64,000 nt of DNA from Patescibacteria group bacterium UBA1406 (GTDB lineage: Bacteria > Patescibacteriota > Microgenomatia > UBA1406), in the NCBI GenBank assembly GCA_002305675.1, contig DBQA01000007.1:110653-174652 (forward strand), read 5' to 3'. The notes below the pieces were generated by a model that did no database searches, was not told the origin of the DNA, and saw only the letters and a list, made by a program, of their open reading frames with translations. This document shows positions 13,882 through 22,277 of this stretch, piece by piece. The translations under genes were made by a program, and so were the position numbers. The stretch's first letter is position 1, and each line of letters begins with the position of its first letter.

Positions 13882-15300
13882 ATGAACTTTATCAGCATCC
13901 TGTACAATAAACTTCATTTACTGAAAATATCCAGTCCTTTAATCGGCAAGAAGAAAATCCACACCTCCTCCGTCACCATTCCCGCCTCCGAAGCCCGGAA
14001 CTTCAACATCGACGTCTGGGCCCTCCATTTCAAGAAGGCCCTGGAAAAGATGGCCGAGACCAAATTCACCAATTCAAAGGCCCAGCTTATCCTAGACCAG
14101 AGGTTTTGGAAGTTCATCCGGATAGAGATCCCGGCCGACATCCAGGACTCGGCCATGGAGCAGTTCCTGAAAGAAGAGCTCCAGGGCAAGGTAGCCGATT
14201 TCCAGGTCAACAGCCTGTACAAGTTTTACCTCGCCGAACACAAGGGCAAGAGAGTGGCCAATATTTTCATCCTCCCGAGAGCCGTCCTGACCGATATCGA
14301 AACTCTGCTTTCGTTCTACGATATCGACATCGACACCATTTATCCCGAGGCCGTCCTGATATTCAGGATATTCGAGCACACGCTCAACAAAAAGAAGGAG
14401 GAGACCGCCCTGTTCATGGAGTACGGGAACGAGCTTAGCACCGGTCTCCTGTTCGATAGCGCCGGTCTATACAAGGAAGAGCCCATTGTCATCGAATCGG
14501 ACAGCATCCGCAAAAGCCTGAAGGAGTTCAAGCTTGAGGAAACAAGCACCATTGCCCGGCTCATCCTGGGCGGGGAGATGTCCACCGGCATCAGGCAGGA
14601 CAACTTCACCAAGGACACCGGCCTCTGGACCAACCCGCTGGAAAAAGTACTCGACCACTCTAGTTACCGGCAATTTGCCCAAAAGCATGGCCTGGTCCCG
14701 AAGCTTCTCGAGTTCCACCGCGAGCTTTCGCTCCTCAAGGCTATCGAGGACAAGACGGCCGCCGAGATCTCTATCCCGGTCAAGGGCAGGAAGGACGTCC
14801 GGGCCCTCAACAACCTTTCCTTCCGCCGGCCTGCACCCAGGTCAGCTTCCCGCCTGTTAAGGAACGCCGTCTTCATCCTGGTTTCGTTCACCGCTACCTT
14901 TTTGCTGTTGAACCTTGCCCTCAGGAATATCGGGGCCATCAGGCTGCCGTCTTTCCGGACCGCCACTCCGACCCCAGTACCAACCCGGAGGCCGACGGCC
15001 GTACCGACGGTGGCAGTGGACAGGGCGGATGTCACCATCGACATCCAGAACGGCGTGGGCACACCTGGCCTGGCCAATTCCTTCAAGACGGAACTGACCG
15101 ACCTCGGCTATGCGGTCGGGACGGTCGGTAACGCAGAGAACTACGATTACGAGAACACCGTCATTATTGCCCCGGACAGGGCCACATTCAACCTGCTCAG
15201 GGAAGACCTGGGGGACTGGGGTGTATCCTCACCGGTCTACGAGAACACGAACGCAAGCCGGGTCACCATCATCATCGGCGCCGACCTGGACCTTCCGTAA
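13882..15300 (+). CDS. LytR_C domain membrane protein with large uncharacterised cytoplasmic N-terminal domain
   Basis: C-terminus VTIDIQNGVGTPGLANSFKTELTDLGYAVGTVGNAENYDYENTVII matches the LytR_C pattern, with a TM at VFILVSFTATFLLLNLAL. The ATG at 13882 is preferred (TGtCACAAT box 7 nt upstream). Confidence 0.65.
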   Translation: MNFISILYNKLHLLKISSPLIGKKKIHTSSVTIPASEARNFNIDVWALHFKKALEKMAETKFTNSKAQLILDQRFWKFIRIEIPADIQDSAMEQFLKEELQGKVADFQVNSLYKFYLAEHKGKRVANIFILPRAVLTDIETLLSFYDIDIDTIYPEAVLIFRIFEHTLNKKKEETALFMEYGNELSTGLLFDSAGLYKEEPIVIESDSIRKSLKEFKLEETSTIARLILGGEMSTGIRQDNFTKDTGLWTNPLEKVLDHSSYRQFAQKHGLVPKLLEFHRELSLLKAIEDKTAAEISIPVKGRKDVRALNNLSFRRPAPRSASRLLRNAVFILVSFTATFLLLNLALRNIGAIRLPSFRTATPTPVPTRRPTAVPTVAVDRADVTIDIQNGVGTPGLANSFKTELTDLGYAVGTVGNAENYDYENTVIIAPDRATFNLLREDLGDWGVSSPVYENTNASRVTIIIGADLDLP

Positions 15301-15317
15301 TATAGTAAAATATCCAC

Positions 15318-16331
15318 ATGCATCAGGATCCTGAAATAGTCAAGGAAAAATACCTTAGTCTGAAGGATAAGTTCGTCCTGGAAGAGAAAACCGCCCGCCT
15401 GAAGGAACTGGAGCAAAATATCAGCGACCCCAAGCTGTGGGAGAACCAGGACAAGGCCAAGGAGCTTCTGAAGGAACACAGCCGGCTCAAGCAAAGAGTG
15501 GAGGACTTTGAAATGATGGAACTCCTGTTCCTCGACGACGACTATGCCAGTCTCGGCAAGCTGGTCGCGGAGTACGAAAACCTGCTCCTTTTTTCCGGCA
15601 AATACGACGGCCGTGATATCATCTTTGCCATCCACGCCGGCCAGGGAGGAACCGAAGCCATGGACTGGGCAGCTATGCTTTTCAGGATGTATACCCGTTA
15701 CTTTGAAAGGAAAGGATGGAAGACGGAGATGATCGATGAGGTTCCGGGAGAAGAGGCCGGTATCAAAAGCGTGGTCCTGAACGTATACGGGGAAGACGTT
15801 TTCGGCCATATGAAGGCAGAGGCCGGCGTCCACCGGCTGGTGCGCCAATCCCCTTTCAATGCCAACGCCCTCCGGCAGACATCCTTCGCCCTGGTCGAGG
15901 CCATGCCCATCCTGGAGGAACAGGAAGTGGAGATCAAGGAGGAGGACCTGGACTGGCAGTTCTACCGCTCCGGCGGTCATGGTGGCCAGAACGTGAACAA
16001 GGTCTCCACGGCAGTCCGGCTTCTACACAAGCCGACCGGCATCGTCGTCACCAGCCAGCAGGAAAGGCAGCAGCTGCAGAACCGCAACGTTGCACTACAG
16101 ATACTGCGCGGCAAGCTGTGGCAGCTTGAGGAACAAAAGATGGAAGCGGAACAGGAACAGTTCAAGAAAAGCAAGATGGCCAGCTGGGGACTGCAGATAC
16201 GCTCCTACGTCCTCCATCCCTATAAGCTGGTCAAAGACCTGCGGACCGACCATGAAAGCACCAACCCCGAGCGGGTGCTCGACGGAGAACTGGATGATTT
16301 CGTAAAAGCATATTTGCTAAAATTCTCTTAA
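15318..16331 (+). CDS. prfB: Peptide chain release factor 2 (single ORF, no programmed frameshift)
   Basis: SPF tripeptide (RQSPFNAN) and the GGQ motif (SGGHGGQNVNKV). Only 17 nt separate it from the upstream stop codon. Confidence 0.92.
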   Translation: MHQDPEIVKEKYLSLKDKFVLEEKTARLKELEQNISDPKLWENQDKAKELLKEHSRLKQRVEDFEMMELLFLDDDYASLGKLVAEYENLLLFSGKYDGRDIIFAIHAGQGGTEAMDWAAMLFRMYTRYFERKGWKTEMIDEVPGEEAGIKSVVLNVYGEDVFGHMKAEAGVHRLVRQSPFNANALRQTSFALVEAMPILEEQEVEIKEEDLDWQFYRSGGHGGQNVNKVSTAVRLLHKPTGIVVTSQQERQQLQNRNVALQILRGKLWQLEEQKMEAEQEQFKKSKMASWGLQIRSYVLHPYKLVKDLRTDHESTNPERVLDGELDDFVKAYLLKFS

Positions 16332-16363: not shown

Positions 16364-16819
16364 ATGGCAGCGCAAATATTCCATAAATTGGAGGATAAGG
16401 GAAATCCTAACCGTGCAGAGACCAAAAAAGCCCTGACCGCGGGCATATTCGTCCTTATTGCCGTGGCCGGCCTGTTCTCGGGGTGGCTCGCCGCCAGACT
16501 CATCGTTCCCCGGGAAACATCCTCGGTCAAGACCTACACGGGAGAGGAGACGGGCGTCTTCGGTGCCAAGAAGCTCGGTCAGAAAAACGACGAGCTCTGT
16601 CCCGATACGGCCGAGGGGACGGTCAAAAAAGGCGGCATCGACGGCGAAGGAACCCACCACCTGCAGCGGCCGGGGGGCGAATCACAGAACGTCTATCTGA
16701 CCTCTTCCACTATCGACCTGGACCAGGTGGTCAACAAGAAAGTAAAAGTTTGGGGTCAGACTTATGCGGCTGAAACAGCGGGTTGGCTGATGGACGCCTG
16801 CTATCTGGAAGTCAAATAA
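16364..16819 (+). CDS. Hypothetical membrane-anchored protein
   Basis: 151 aa with one TM (GIFVLIAVAGLFSGWLAA). Coding-like composition and tightly packed before ftsE. Confidence 0.45.
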   Translation: MAAQIFHKLEDKGNPNRAETKKALTAGIFVLIAVAGLFSGWLAARLIVPRETSSVKTYTGEETGVFGAKKLGQKNDELCPDTAEGTVKKGGIDGEGTHHLQRPGGESQNVYLTSSTIDLDQVVNKKVKVWGQTYAAETAGWLMDACYLEVK

Positions 16820-16821
16820 TC

Positions 16822-17505
<684 letters not shown>

Positions 17506-17508
17506 CGT

Positions 17509-18405
17509 ATGAACGAAACGGTCAAATCACTAAGGAGGTCTCCCTATCAAACCGCCGGGATCTTTTTCGCCCTGGCTTTCAGTTTTCTGGTGCTTTTGAT
17601 ATTCTCCTTCTCCATCCTCCTTCTGACCAGGATAGTCCACTATATCGAAACGCAACCCCAGGTGACCATATATTTTCTGAAAACCACCCCTGAGTCCAGC
17701 ATGTATAAGCTCAGGGAGGAGCTGATGAGCACTGAAAAGGTCAAGGAGGTCAGATACATCTCCAAACAGGAAGCGCTGAAGATATACAAAGATATGAACA
17801 AGAACGAGCCGCTCCTTTTGGAGATGGTCAGTTCCGAGGCTCTCCCCGCCTCTCTCGAGGTTTACACCCAGAAACCGGAATACCTCAAGGACGTGGCGGA
17901 GCTCGTCAAGAAGGAGCCCGGCGTGGAGGAGGTTGCCTACCAGCAGGACGTCATCGACAGCCTCATCAAAGTCACGAACTCCGTCAGGGTGGCAGCCATG
18001 GCCTTCCTGTCGGCGCAGTTTTTGGTCGTGTTCTTCATTATTTTCACGACCATCACTTTCAAGATCGTGGCCAAAAAGGAGGAGATAGAGATCATGCGGC
18101 TTTTGGGGGCCAGCCGCTACTTCATCATCCGACCGCTCCTGAAGCAAAACCTGTTCATCAACTTTCTCGCTTCCATCGTCAGCTCGGTCATATTTATCGG
18201 CGGCTACCTCTCGCTGCAGACGAAGCTCGCCGGCTTCCTGACCGGGATCCCCTCCCTTACTCTCTATGAGAGCGATGTTTTCAATCTCTACATCTGGCCG
18301 CCTAACCTCTATATGTTCACCTTCTTCACTATCATTACCTTTGCGGTCGGCTACTCCATCATCTGGTTCACTACCTTTCTTGCGGCTTCCAAATACATTA
18401 AATAA
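17509..18405 (+). CDS. ftsX: Cell-division permease-like protein FtsX
   Basis: 298 aa with one TM, a periplasmic domain and three C-terminal TMs. Immediately downstream of ftsE. Confidence 0.85.
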   Translation: MNETVKSLRRSPYQTAGIFFALAFSFLVLLIFSFSILLLTRIVHYIETQPQVTIYFLKTTPESSMYKLREELMSTEKVKEVRYISKQEALKIYKDMNKNEPLLLEMVSSEALPASLEVYTQKPEYLKDVAELVKKEPGVEEVAYQQDVIDSLIKVTNSVRVAAMAFLSAQFLVVFFIIFTTITFKIVAKKEEIEIMRLLGASRYFIIRPLLKQNLFINFLASIVSSVIFIGGYLSLQTKLAGFLTGIPSLTLYESDVFNLYIWPPNLYMFTFFTIITFAVGYSIIWFTTFLAASKYIK

Positions 18406-18454: not shown

Positions 18455-19663
18455 ATGCGTATTAAGGGCGTCGTTCTATTGGCGGCTATGGCCGTATTTT
18501 TCTTCTTGGTCAAAGGCTCCCTTGCCCAGAATGTAGAGTGCAAAGAGGTCTCCTCAAAGGACCAGGCCGAGCTCCAAAAAATAATCAGTGCCTGCAATCT
18601 CAAGCTGCAGGAGCTGTCAGTGACCCGCAATACCCTGGCCAGCCAGATCCAGTACATGGATACCCAGATCTATCTCACGGAACTGGAGATCGGCCGGAAC
18701 GAGAACCAGATAGAAGTCCTTAAGGACGAAATAAAGAATCTGCAGGGCCGGATAAAAGAACTGGACCTGACCACCGACAAGGTGTCGGAGATAGTCACCA
18801 AGAAGATCAACCAGATGTACAAGAAGCAGCGGACGAGCTTCATCAACACCTTCCTGAACGCCCACAACCTGTCCGAGTTCCTCCGTTCCATCCAGTACCT
18901 GAAAAAGTCCCAGGAGAACGACCGCAACCTGTTATTAAAACTACAGAACACCAAGGTCACCTTTGCGGAACAGAAAGATTTGAGGGAGGTTAAAGAAGAA
19001 GAGCTCAAGGAGGTCACCGTCCGACTGGAGAGATATACTGCCGACCTGGCTGCCCAACAACAGGAAAAGAAAAGCCTGATAGATCTTACCAGGAACGACG
19101 AGCAAAGATACCAAAGGCTCTTGGCAGAAGCCCAGCAGGAGCTTTCCCAGATCCAGCAGGCGGCCAAATTCCTGCAGCAGTCCGGCGAGCCGGTCGCCGT
19201 CAAGCGGGGCCAGGTCATTGGCGTACAGGGCAATACGGGCTATTCCACCGGGGACCATCTGCATTTCGGCGTTTATCGGTATGGCTCCATCGACCAGCTG
19301 AACAACGGCAGCTGGTACCATAACAACTGGATGGACCCGGGAGAGGTACTCTCTTCGCGAACGGTCCGCTGGGAAACAGGCTGCGAGGCAAGCGGGTCGA
19401 GAACGGTCGGTTCGGGCAGCTTCGACTGGCCCATGAATCCCACCGCCATCTCCCAGGGGTCCGGTTATACCTGCTATTCCAGCGCCTTCTATAATGGTAA
19501 TCCCCACCCGGCATGGGACATGTGGGGACCGAGCGGGTCATCCATCTATGCTGTTGAGGATGGGACGGCCTATATCTGCCGTAACTGCCTGGGTGACGGG
19601 GGCAACGGGGTTTTCATATTCCACCCGAACGGTATCATGACCCTGTACTGGCATCTCCAGTAA
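18455..19663 (+). CDS. Coiled-coil M23 (LytM-type) peptidoglycan metallopeptidase, EnvC-like position after ftsEX; catalytic domain segments in permuted order
   Basis: Signal peptide, then ~220 aa of coiled coil. GNTGYSTGDHLHF (HxH, aa 260-271) comes BEFORE HPAWD (HxxxD, aa 351-355) and the terminal YWHLQ. Confidence 0.85.
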   Translation: MRIKGVVLLAAMAVFFFLVKGSLAQNVECKEVSSKDQAELQKIISACNLKLQELSVTRNTLASQIQYMDTQIYLTELEIGRNENQIEVLKDEIKNLQGRIKELDLTTDKVSEIVTKKINQMYKKQRTSFINTFLNAHNLSEFLRSIQYLKKSQENDRNLLLKLQNTKVTFAEQKDLREVKEEELKEVTVRLERYTADLAAQQQEKKSLIDLTRNDEQRYQRLLAEAQQELSQIQQAAKFLQQSGEPVAVKRGQVIGVQGNTGYSTGDHLHFGVYRYGSIDQLNNGSWYHNNWMDPGEVLSSRTVRWETGCEASGSRTVGSGSFDWPMNPTAISQGSGYTCYSSAFYNGNPHPAWDMWGPSGSSIYAVEDGTAYICRNCLGDGGNGVFIFHPNGIMTLYWHLQ

Positions 19664-19716: not shown

Positions 19717-20901
19717 GTGGCAAAACTAATCCGTTCCATACTGCTTTTGTTTTTTCTTTTCTCCATACAAAGCCGGGTGTTTGCGGCTCTGCGAATCAAC
19801 GAGATCTACCCTGCACCCCCGGCTGGCGGATCTGAATGGGTAGAGATCTATAATCCTTCTTCCGAGACGGTTGAGCTTACCCAATATAAACTGACGGATT
19901 TGAGCAATAAAGGGATAAGATTCACCGAACCAATAATCGGCCCTCTCGGCTTCGCTCTGGCCACCTCATCGGCGGTCCTCAATAACGACGGAGATACCGT
20001 TTTGCTGAAAAACCTGGCGGACGAGCTCGTTGATATTGCCACATATTCAGGGAGCTTTAACGCCGAGAAGTCAGCCGGCCGCTGCCCGGACGGCATGGTC
20101 GGTTTGCTTATCCTGCATGTCCTGACCAAAGGCCTTACCAATAACCCCGGCTGCCCAGTCTCGCCTACCCCGGCGCCTGTCCCGACCGTTGTTCCCGAGG
20201 TCACGAAGAACATTGTCACCTACGATAATATTCACCTGTCCGAAGCAATGCCGAACCCCGAAGAAGGCAAAGAATGGGTGGAGATATACAACGGCAACAG
20301 TTTCCCCATTTCTTTGGTTGACTGGTATATTGACGATATTGAGAACGGCGGCGCCACCCCCAAGAAGTTCAGTCTGGATATCCCCGCCAATGGGTTTGCC
20401 GTAATTGAACTGATTTCGGCCATATTCAATAATGACGGGGATACCGTTCGCCTCCTGGATACGGATAAAAAGGAAAAGGACAGTTTTGAGTACGGGAGAT
20501 CGGAAAAAGGCAGAAGCCTCAGCCGGCAGAATCTTGGGGACGAGCCGGTCTGGTGCACCACCGGACCAAGTCCCCACCAACCGAACCACCCCTGCCCGGT
20601 ACTGACTGTCCCCACTCCCCGGATCACGACCGCCCCGAACGGGCTGGTCCAGGGGATAATGGCCGTCAACAAACCGGTTCGACCCTTACCCGGACCGACC
20701 GCCCTGAAAGTAGCCCTGGAAAAATATGGCACAGGCCCTGATCAATCCGGTCCGAATAAAAAAGTCTCCGATCCCTCCCGCCGGCCGGAAGCAGGCGCCC
20801 TCCTGTCCGCCCTGGCCTTATTGAAGTTTAATCTTTTCGGCAATTTGTGCCTGTATATGATAGTTTTTATATATGGGTACAAAGAAGGGCTCTGGTCTTA
20901 G
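19717..20901 (+). CDS. Secreted protein with two lamin-tail (LTD) domains and C-terminal hydrophobic anchor
   Basis: GTG start. Two repeats of the pattern INEIYPAP...EWVEIYN...NNDGDTVLL and LSEAMPNP...EWVEIYN...NNDGDTVRLL. Confidence 0.75.
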   Translation: MAKLIRSILLLFFLFSIQSRVFAALRINEIYPAPPAGGSEWVEIYNPSSETVELTQYKLTDLSNKGIRFTEPIIGPLGFALATSSAVLNNDGDTVLLKNLADELVDIATYSGSFNAEKSAGRCPDGMVGLLILHVLTKGLTNNPGCPVSPTPAPVPTVVPEVTKNIVTYDNIHLSEAMPNPEEGKEWVEIYNGNSFPISLVDWYIDDIENGGATPKKFSLDIPANGFAVIELISAIFNNDGDTVRLLDTDKKEKDSFEYGRSEKGRSLSRQNLGDEPVWCTTGPSPHQPNHPCPVLTVPTPRITTAPNGLVQGIMAVNKPVRPLPGPTALKVALEKYGTGPDQSGPNKKVSDPSRRPEAGALLSALALLKFNLFGNLCLYMIVFIYGYKEGLWS

Positions 20902-21277
20902 GGTGTTCTTGACCGCCTTCCTGCCCCTGGTTCTCTGGATGGGGCTGATCTTCTTCTTTTCCGAGCAGGAAAAGATCCCGGTCACCGGAAACTACACGGT
21001 CAGCTTCATCATCTTCAAGTCCCTGCACCTCATCGAGTACGGTATCCTCTACCTGCTTTGGGCTCGCTTCCTCCATCTGTCCGGGGTAAGGAACTTTTAC
21101 CTCCTGGCCTTTATCCTGACCTTCCTGTATGGTGTCAGCGACGAACTGCACCAGACAGTCACTCCCACCCGGGAAGGAACATTGCGTGATGTCCTGATAG
21201 ACGGGCTGGGAGCCTTTGTGGCCAACTTTTTCCTCACCAGAGTGACCTGGTTGTCCAAAATCGTCCTTCATAAATAG
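20873..21277 (+). CDS. VanZ-like family membrane protein
   Basis: 134 aa with 4 TMs. Motifs HLIEYGILYLL and YGVSDELHQ. Confidence 0.7.
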   Translation: MGTKKGSGLRVFLTAFLPLVLWMGLIFFFSEQEKIPVTGNYTVSFIIFKSLHLIEYGILYLLWARFLHLSGVRNFYLLAFILTFLYGVSDELHQTVTPTREGTLRDVLIDGLGAFVANFFLTRVTWLSKIVLHK

Positions 21278-21305
21278 CGCCGCCTTCTTTTGCTATACTG
21301 GGTGT

Positions 21306-22277
21306 ATGGGCTTTTGGGGCAAAATCAGGGCTGGTTTGAATAACTGGCTTGTTCCGCATGAGAACAATGGCTGGAAGCCGAAATACCTGCAACACGATTT
21401 CCTGACCACGCTCATCGCCGTGCTTTTAGTGGTCAACCTGGTGTTCAGGTTCGGTATCAAAAACTTCCCCATCAACATCCTCGGAGTCAGCGTGGACATC
21501 TCCGTGGAAACCCTGTTGAACTACACTAATGCCGAAAGACTCAGGTACGGACTGGCCCCACTTGCGCTTAACCAAAAGCTGATGGTGGCGGCCGGAGAAA
21601 AGGCCGGTGACATATTCACCAAAAACTACTGGGCCCATTTCGCTCCGGATGGTACCAGTCCCTGGTATTTTTTCCAAAAAAACAATTACAACTATATCTA
21701 TGCCGGCGAGAACCTGGCCAAAGACTTCTCGAGCAGTCAGGACGTGGTGGTCGCCTGGATGAATTCCGAGACCCACCGCGAGAACATCCTCAAGCCCGAG
21801 TACAAGGACATCGGTTTTGCCGTCATGGAAGGGAACCTCCTCGGCCAGCCCACCGTGCTCATCGTGCAGTTCTTCGGTTCCGAAGAGGTGGCGCTCGCCG
21901 AAAACAAGCCCCCAGATAACCCCGCTCCCGTCACCGCCTTGGAAAGTAGCCCGCCGGAACCGACCCTTACTCCGGCAGAACCAACCCCGGCCCAAGCGGC
22001 CGTGTTGGCAGAAGGACGTCCCGGCAAGCCGCAGACGGTCCTCTCCGCCCGTGGTACGGACACCGTTTCCAAAAAGCCCCTTGTCAATGTTATCGGCTTC
22101 CAGAAACAGCTCATCATCGCCGTGTTGACCGTCCTCATCATGGCCTTGGCGCTTGACTTCTACATGATCGAGAAGCGCAAGATATTCAGGTTGTCCGGAA
22201 AGCATGTGGCCCACCTTCTGTTTACACTGATGCTGATATTGAGTATAATCACTACAAATCCTGGATCCATCTTATGA
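21306..22277 (+). CDS. CAP/SCP/PR1-like (YkwD-type) domain protein with Pro-rich linker and C-terminal TMs
   Basis: LLNYTNAERLRYGLAPLALNQKL...AWMNSETHRENIL...DIGFAV is the CAP-domain pattern. Confidence 0.8.
   Translation: MGFWGKIRAGLNNWLVPHENNGWKPKYLQHDFLTTLIAVLLVVNLVFRFGIKNFPINILGVSVDISVETLLNYTNAERLRYGLAPLALNQKLMVAAGEKAGDIFTKNYWAHFAPDGTSPWYFFQKNNYNYIYAGENLAKDFSSSQDVVVAWMNSETHRENILKPEYKDIGFAVMEGNLLGQPTVLIVQFFGSEEVALAENKPPDNPAPVTALESSPPEPTLTPAEPTPAQAAVLAEGRPGKPQTVLSARGTDTVSKKPLVNVIGFQKQLIIAVLTVLIMALALDFYMIEKRKIFRLSGKHVAHLLFTLMLILSIITTNPGSIL

Follow-up and report, generated by a model that had tools for sequence, protein, structure and literature searches.

Does a gene beside ftsE and ftsX in a Patescibacteria genome encode an M23 peptidase whose two halves have exchanged places along the chain, and do these halves still form one working active site? 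Few cell-wall enzymes have been studied as much as the M23/LytM peptidases, which comprise both enzymes (lysostaphin, LytM) and regulators (EnvC, NlpD). The gene considered here lies at 18455..19663 on the + strand of a 64,000-nucleotide stretch (the window) of contig DBQA01000007.1 from Patescibacteria group bacterium UBA1406, a member of the candidate phyla radiation (CPR), directly downstream of ftsE and ftsX. Its listed open reading frame (ORF) encodes 402 amino acids (aa) plus a stop codon, made up of a putative signal peptide, a coiled coil and a permuted M23 domain. An earlier note on this DNA had described a permuted domain at 19184–19663, a range that corresponds to aa 244–402 and the stop codon of this ORF. 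We conclude that the gene probably encodes an extracytoplasmic partner of FtsEX with a true circularly permuted M23 domain, which is most likely an endopeptidase and most plausibly arose by duplication.

Swapped order of the M23 segments

The native protein matches the Pfam Peptidase_M23 hidden Markov model (HMM; PF01551) with an E value of 1.1e-14 and 54.8 bits against a cut-off of 28.7, in two stretches that are split and out of order, the kind of hit that the earlier note had proposed to look for and one far beyond chance. The best stretch aligns aa 248–277 to model positions 62–91 of 96, and each half alone passes the cut-off (29.6 and 31.4 bits). The first part of the domain, segment A (aa 244–302, 19184..19360, +), corresponds to the canonical C-terminal third of M23 (model positions 62–91 of 96) and contains the V.VkkGq.IG hairpin, GNTGYSTGDHLHF carrying H268 and H270, and then the ...DP..L tail. 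A connector (aa 303–322, 19361..19420, +) runs from the old C-terminus to the old N-terminus as a β-hairpin with the invariant C310 at its tip. Segment B (aa 323–402, 19421..19660, +) corresponds to the canonical N-terminal two-thirds (model positions 2–53 of 96), with the WP motif, H351xxxD355, a GNG..i.H core and the YWH400LQ strand, which forms the end of the protein two residues after H400. The swap of the two halves claimed in the earlier note is thus borne out, and its peptides and residue numbers (V247...Y274, W325, H351, D355, H400, H268 and H270) are exact. A linker between the halves is also present, although not at the ~50 aa given there: the true connector is only ~20 aa, because residues 275–302 still match the canonical C-terminal part of M23 (...vDP..L motif). 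The canonical C-terminal tail (…DPGEVL) is kept to ~aa 302, and homology to TagE extends to ~aa 308.

Alignment of the native sequence to solved M23 peptidases is inverted; for PDB entry 3slu, query 321–401 falls on 216–295 and query 249–273 on 305–329. When the sequence is re-ordered in silico, aa 316–402 followed by aa 241–315, it gives one continuous Pfam match over model positions 2–91 of 96 with 66.6 bits, compared with 57.8 bits in two stretches for the native sequence. Similarly, the re-ordered sequence aligns to 3slu 221–329 in a single alignment with an E value of 4e-13, as against 3.4e-7 in the native order. The artificial junction in this alignment, ...TLYWHLQ|QQSGEPVAVKRGQVIG on ...TLYAHLSAFSQAQGNVRGGEVIG, is free of gaps, and therefore the native C-terminus stops exactly where the canonical continuation, the first strand of segment A, takes over. 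The motifs of the protein follow the order HxH (268–270), HxxxD (351–355) and YWH (398–400) in place of the canonical HxxxD, YxH and HxH. Since this order departs from that of the family and re-joining restores a continuous match, the protein is a permuted variant and not a standard M23 member. At the level of sequence, a circularly permuted M23 domain with all catalytic residues kept is therefore confirmed.

Catalytic residues and probable partnership with FtsEX

H268, H270, H351, D355 and H400, all reported as present in the earlier note, are invariant in 105 of 105 aligned homologues, and the five catalytic/zinc-binding residues occur in at least 170 of 171 permuted proteins. The protein contains the H(x)nD and HxH motifs and the third catalytic histidine (H400, the equivalent of LytM H260) by which the family and its catalytic residues are defined (PMC9662197). 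H351, D355 and H270 would act as zinc ligands, with H268 and H400 as the catalytic histidines. Because all five residues are invariant, the protein itself is, judging from conservation, most likely a peptidoglycan endopeptidase, comparable in being the hydrolase to PcsB, CwlO and RipC, and not a dead amidase activator like E. coli EnvC.

N-terminal to the M23 domain, aa 1–24 (MRIKGVVLLAAMAVFFFLVKGSLA, 18455..18526, +) look like a Sec signal peptide or membrane anchor, with a basic n-region, a hydrophobic core and a putative SLA|Q cleavage site. AlphaFold2 (AF2), run with the 105-sequence alignment, places a helix at 3–22 in this region. An EnvC/PcsB-like coiled coil follows (aa 37–243, 18563..19183, +), for which AF2 predicts helices 37–56, 61–135, 139–212 and 216–243. 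In the PDB, Foldseek matches the full AF2 model best to EnvC, both from the FtsEX complex of V. cholerae (8tzl_E) and from E. coli with the FtsX domain bound (6tpi_A), and PcsB (4cgk) and RipC in FtsEX (8idc_E) are further top matches; each of these is a coiled-coil factor under FtsEX control. The protein does not qualify as a PcsB family member: the Pfam CC_PcsB match on the coiled coil is weak (22.3 bits, below the cut-off of 27), the NCBIfam PcsB model gives an E value of 3.9, and there is no CHAP domain. It has two properties of an EnvC-type partner, adjacency to ftsEX and a long antiparallel coiled coil ahead of the LytM domain, and lacks two others, a degenerate LytM site and a match to the EnvC equivalog (NCBIfam PRK11637, 16.2 bits against a cut-off of 270).

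The adjacency that underlies the FtsEX association proposed in the earlier note is clear at this locus. The ABC ATPase gene ftsE (16822..17505, +; Pfam ABC_tran, E 3.8e-31) is listed as an ORF from a TTG at 16783, with the ATG at 16822 as its likely start. The permease gene ftsX (17509..18405, +), whose product has an extracytoplasmic domain (Pfam FtsX_ECD, E 8e-18; FtsX, E 1.6e-8), follows with its synteny kept, and related loci likewise have ftsE just before ftsX and the M23 gene.

Such a protein might instead be permuted but non-hydrolytic, an activator like EnvC or NlpD whose groove binds and de-represses another hydrolase (an amidase), with the conserved histidines and aspartate serving zinc-dependent structure or binding only. 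LytM factors are commonly activators (PMC9662197, PMC11627006), and EnvC in FtsEX complexes provides both the overall architecture and the best structural matches. However, EnvC-type activators have lost their zinc ligands (PMC11627006), whereas all five positions are invariant here, and the EnvC equivalog scores only 16 bits against its cut-off of 270. A nearly invariant Y346 lies near the position of the oxyanion Tyr of LytM, and the permuted domain is also found at the C-terminus of an 1118-aa protein from a locus resembling a type IV secretion system (T4SS), where a wall-cutting enzyme would be expected. We therefore regard a purely activating role as improbable and favor an endopeptidase.

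Predicted assembly of the two segments into one domain

Structure prediction, which the earlier note had proposed, gives one compact, high-confidence domain. The full-length AF2 model has a predicted local distance difference test score (pLDDT) of 91.8 and a predicted template modelling score (pTM) of 0.79. The domain-only model (aa 234–402) reaches a pLDDT of 95.3 and a pTM of 0.91, and none of its 10-residue blocks, the connector included, has a pLDDT below 89, which points to one rigid unit. The predicted strand order, when segment B is read into segment A, equals the canonical M23 consensus, and the connector forms strands 302–306 and 314–318. This connector is without a counterpart in most canonical M23 relatives, 69 of 74 of which have a gap at the C310 column.

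Co-variation was examined by mean-field direct coupling analysis (DCA) on 211 permuted domains (Meff 120), and 31 of the top 80 couplings join segments A and B. The couplings V273–T396 and R275–G393/I394 set the HLHF strand beside the YWHL strand, which would bring H268 and H270 opposite H400, as in canonical M23 active sites. Further strand pairings between the segments are given by A248–T371, V249–A372 and Q253–I374, while T303–S315 and R305–S313 support the connector hairpin. The prediction is thus that segments A and B come together in a single M23-like domain and restore one active site.

Co-variation cannot tell contacts within a chain from contacts between chains, and coiled-coil hydrolases such as PcsB dimerise (PMC11627006). 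The segments might thus fail to fold intramolecularly and form either a domain-swapped dimer, with segment A of one chain completed by segment B of the other, or two degenerate tandem remnants. We consider this very unlikely in view of the confidence of the AF2 monomer, both overall (pTM) and block by block, and of the conserved connector hairpin with its invariant cysteine. Half an M23 sheet is, moreover, implausible as an autonomous fold, and the strict invariance of residues split over both halves argues for one site. A single intramolecular domain is accordingly the reading that we carry forward.

Permuted order across related genomes

The permutation extends well beyond this genome. A protein search yields 467 homologues at E ≤ 1e-3, whose database names are generic ('peptidoglycan DD-metalloendopeptidase family protein', 'CwlO-like'). 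In the best 120 of them (40–100% identity, ~390–440 aa), without exception, HxH comes ahead of HxxxD and the protein ends with YWH[LVM]x-stop. Scanning GTDB species genomes yields at least 316 relatives, from which 80 related loci were kept for all locus counts. Segment A precedes segment B on the same strand in 79 of these 80 loci, and the remaining locus is cut by a contig end. With the permuted domain as query against a library of 50%-identity representatives, 86 proteins are found at E ≤ 1e-10. Classification of 266 collected proteins by their half-domains gives 170 permuted (AB), 74 canonical (BA) and 8 tandem (BABA) forms. The homologue survey suggested in the earlier note thus shows the permutation to be lineage-wide, and therefore not a rearrangement artefact.

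The record titles of the relatives name WWE3, Levyibacteriota, Gottesman-, Shapiro- and Pacebacteria and the 'Microgenomates/Patescibacteria group'; several third-party annotation (TPA) bins carry the generic labels 'Gammaproteobacteria' or 'Saccharibacteria', which we do not trust. In nearly all related loci whose upstream flank is long enough, ftsE and ftsX come directly before the M23 gene, and the full string of prfB, a small-protein gene, ftsE, ftsX and the M23 gene is often present. An assembly or sequencing rearrangement within 19.18–19.66 kb, or a pseudogene, can be dismissed with near certainty, given the same order and the same C-terminal end in the 120 close homologues from independent projects, the order shared by 79 of 80 loci from different species genomes, and an intact reading frame followed by 53 nt to the next gene with no M23 remnant in that gap. 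Artefact, pseudogene and programmed-frameshift readings were all rejected on the conservation data.

Coiled coil, connector and a possible gate

In characterized FtsEX systems, ATP-driven movement of the FtsX extracellular domain passes through a coiled coil and frees a hydrolase or activator from auto-inhibition (PMC11627006, PMC7668044). The protein described here is probably secreted or anchored, with a long antiparallel coiled coil like that of EnvC, PcsB or RipC, and would bind FtsX. If it works as these three do, ATP binding and hydrolysis by FtsE would shift the extracellular domains of FtsX, and the resulting deformation of the coiled coil would activate the hydrolase at the septum. 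In the permuted domain the chain enters at the hairpin that normally comes after the 'YxHL' strand, runs through GxTGxSTGxHLHF to the normal C-terminal tail, crosses the new ~20-residue hairpin to the normal N-terminus (WP motif, HxxxD) and ends two residues after H400.

The last helix of the coiled coil (216–243) carries many nearly invariant residues and is joined to the segment A hairpin by only three residues (GEP). We extended the DCA to aa 151–402 to ask whether this helix occludes the active site. The result is noisy, and its only consistent signal, between A237/F239/Q241 and I279/Q281/N283, places the last helix against the 279–283 turn. Given this noise, we do not claim a restraining arm of the last helix over the active site.

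Four cysteines (C310, C340, C375 and C378; codons in 19380–19590) do not vary across the 105 aligned sequences. The tip of the connector hairpin carries one of them, a GYTCYS loop another and a CRNC motif the remaining two. They are found only in the core permuted clade (~125–146 of the 171 permuted proteins), and canonical relatives have practically none of them. The four could staple the connector, either as two disulfides or as a Cys4 metal site.

A functional role for the permutation, as opposed to neutral rewiring, is a tentative proposal that we think rather unlikely. The permutation changes the geometry, in that it moves the attachment of the coiled-coil lever from the distal M23 N-terminus to a β-hairpin beside the catalytic histidine strand. 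ATP-driven movement of helix 216–243 could then gate a live active site directly and mechanically. The cluster of C310, C340, C375 and C378 would meanwhile staple the connector, through disulfides or a second structural metal site. EnvC works otherwise, its dead LytM groove being occluded by a 'restraining-arm'.

Origin of the permuted form

Canonical-order coiled-coil M23 proteins with intact motifs are encoded after ftsE-ftsX in other metagenomic lineages (P0159 in locus L083), with named homologues in Ca. Ryanbacteria and the 'Patescibacteria group'. These canonical FtsEX-linked proteins (for example P0159, and P0292 from Ca. Ryanbacteria) share the genomic context, the length (~420–435 aa), the coiled coil with C-terminal M23 domain, and the HxxxD and HxH motifs. 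They differ in having segment B before segment A and an end in ...NPLxYL, and in lacking both the connector hairpin and the four cysteines. The canonical form is likely the ancestral state, and its occurrence elsewhere in the same context implies that the permuted form replaced it in the same operon within Patescibacteria.

Most plausibly, the permuted form derives from this canonical coiled-coil M23 partner of FtsEX. The route would be the classic one of duplication and truncation: the canonical domain is duplicated in tandem, and the first N-part and the last C-part are then lost. Eight proteins have a tandem M23-M23 (B-A-B-A) arrangement (P0151, P0152, P0158, P0173, P0191, P0208, P0228 and P0238). 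The permuted query is collinear across the A1–B2 junction of the tandem protein P0152 over query positions 8–162, and such tandem proteins are a plausible model of the duplication intermediate. No FtsEX-linked intermediate was found, and P0152 itself has no ftsEX beside it.

A neighbour-joining tree was built from re-ordered domains with only 143 columns. In it, 66 of the 74 permuted representatives group together to the exclusion of canonical members, whereas three small groups of divergent permuted proteins (ends YLHVQ, YGHM.. and YAHLD) fall among canonical sequences. Among the divergent permuted proteins, P0188–P0190, P0194, P0217, P0218, P0233, P0252 and P0293 have other C-terminal ends and other cysteine patterns, and P0194 also has ftsE-ftsX immediately upstream.

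Three observations count against a single permuted FtsEX partner with an M23 fold and one duplication origin. The first concerns the origin: the other 8 of the 74 permuted representatives lie outside the main permuted clade, which leaves a single origin unproven, and independent permutation events are possible. The second concerns the partnership, in that two Levyibacteriota loci (L018, L027) are without ftsEX within 5 kb upstream. The third concerns the fold. A Foldseek search of the domain-only AF2 model against the PDB returns no M23 structure, and its best hits (E 0.07) are unrelated cNMP-binding folds. Against BFVD the domain-only model gives borderline matches only, to ~1000-aa cyanophage virion proteins (best E 1.1e-3, TMq ~0.45), which have no clear meaning without alignments. 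Failure of Foldseek is expected, because the aligner depends on sequence order and the query is a permutant. Even a half-domain match to M23 is missing, however, and the fold assignment therefore rests on sequence homology, AF2 confidence and co-variation.

The permuted module is also recruited to a type-IV-secretion or conjugation-like apparatus, where wall-cutting enzymes are expected. P0148 (L082 5001–8357), of 1118 aa, ends in a permuted M23 domain (...ISLYWHLQ), and its neighbours are seven T4SS_pilin genes and genes for PrgI-like, TraC-like and VirB4/TraG-like ATPase proteins.

Neighbouring genes

The gene string at this locus begins with prfB (15318–16331, +), which encodes RF2 and has an ATG as its start codon. 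A search of 15101–15500 found neither an in-frame ORF upstream nor a CTTTGA slippery site, and prfB thus appears to be without the usual programmed +1 frameshift. Between prfB and ftsE lies an ORF of 151 aa (16364–16819, +) for a small conserved membrane protein with one predicted transmembrane helix, for which a Pfam search gives no match. By tblastn, over half of the 80 related loci have it in this place, in the order RF2, ORF, FtsE, FtsX, M23, and the division operon may thus include it as a conserved but uncharacterised member. The genes downstream of the M23 gene (19717–22277, +) encode three proteins: a secreted one that has two lamin-tail domains (LTD), a membrane protein resembling VanZ, and a CAP/SCP (PR-1-like) protein with a transmembrane region at its C-terminus. 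LTD, VanZ and CAP genes also recur 3′ of the M23 gene in many related loci.

Discussion

A comparison with known systems helps to place this protein. EnvC of E. coli, V. cholerae and P. aeruginosa (PDB 6TPI, 8TZL, 8I6O) shares the ftsEX adjacency, the N-terminal export signal, the long antiparallel coiled coil, the last helix after it and the C-terminal M23/LytM domain, and it is the best Foldseek match of the full model. In contrast to the permuted domain with retained catalytic residues described here, the LytM domain of EnvC has the canonical order, has lost the zinc ligands and activates amidases. PcsB of S. pneumoniae, CwlO of B. subtilis and RipC of M. tuberculosis similarly combine a coiled coil with a competent C-terminal hydrolase, which is presumably auto-inhibited until FtsEX switches it on, but their catalytic domains are CHAP or NlpC/P60 cysteine peptidases and not M23. 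Active M23 endopeptidases (LytM, lysostaphin, ShyA, MepM, Csd3, NMB0315 3SLU and TagE 5J1L) share H(x)3D, HxH and the third histidine (PMC9662197), and both halves of the present domain are homologous to them, with E values down to 1e-13 once re-joined. Relative to these enzymes, the segment order is swapped, the termini lie beside the active-site strands, a connector hairpin is added and four cysteines are specific to the clade.

Natural circular permutation has a precedent among peptidoglycan peptidases. In the permuted NlpC/P60 proteins (YaeF/poxvirus G6R, LRAT), catalytic residues are swapped in order within that superfamily (PMC6403190, citing Anantharaman & Aravind 2003); these proteins differ in fold and catalytic chemistry and have no FtsEX link. 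A study of HABAS and sandwich-barrel folds discusses permutations between superfamilies and treats M23 as one topology (PMC11515920). The full-text literature that we searched contains no description of a permuted M23, LytM, EnvC or lysostaphin, and the 2022 review of the M23 family (PMC9662197) does not mention permutation. The earlier note, too, knew of no described permuted M23 coupled to FtsEX. By its sequence, the protein is a real and new topological variant of a known enzyme family, with a putative function.

The permutant is fixed across whole Patescibacteria classes, which indicates that the M23 fold tolerates new termini next to the active site, a property useful for the engineering of M23 lysins. 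It also explains why order-dependent tools perform poorly on these proteins, with split HMM matches and an empty Foldseek result. Because the coiled coil is attached at a different point of the catalytic domain, the permutant can serve as a natural experiment on the transmission of force from FtsEX to its hydrolase. For the organisms themselves, the protein is a candidate for the main septal hydrolase in a large, uncultured part of the bacterial tree.
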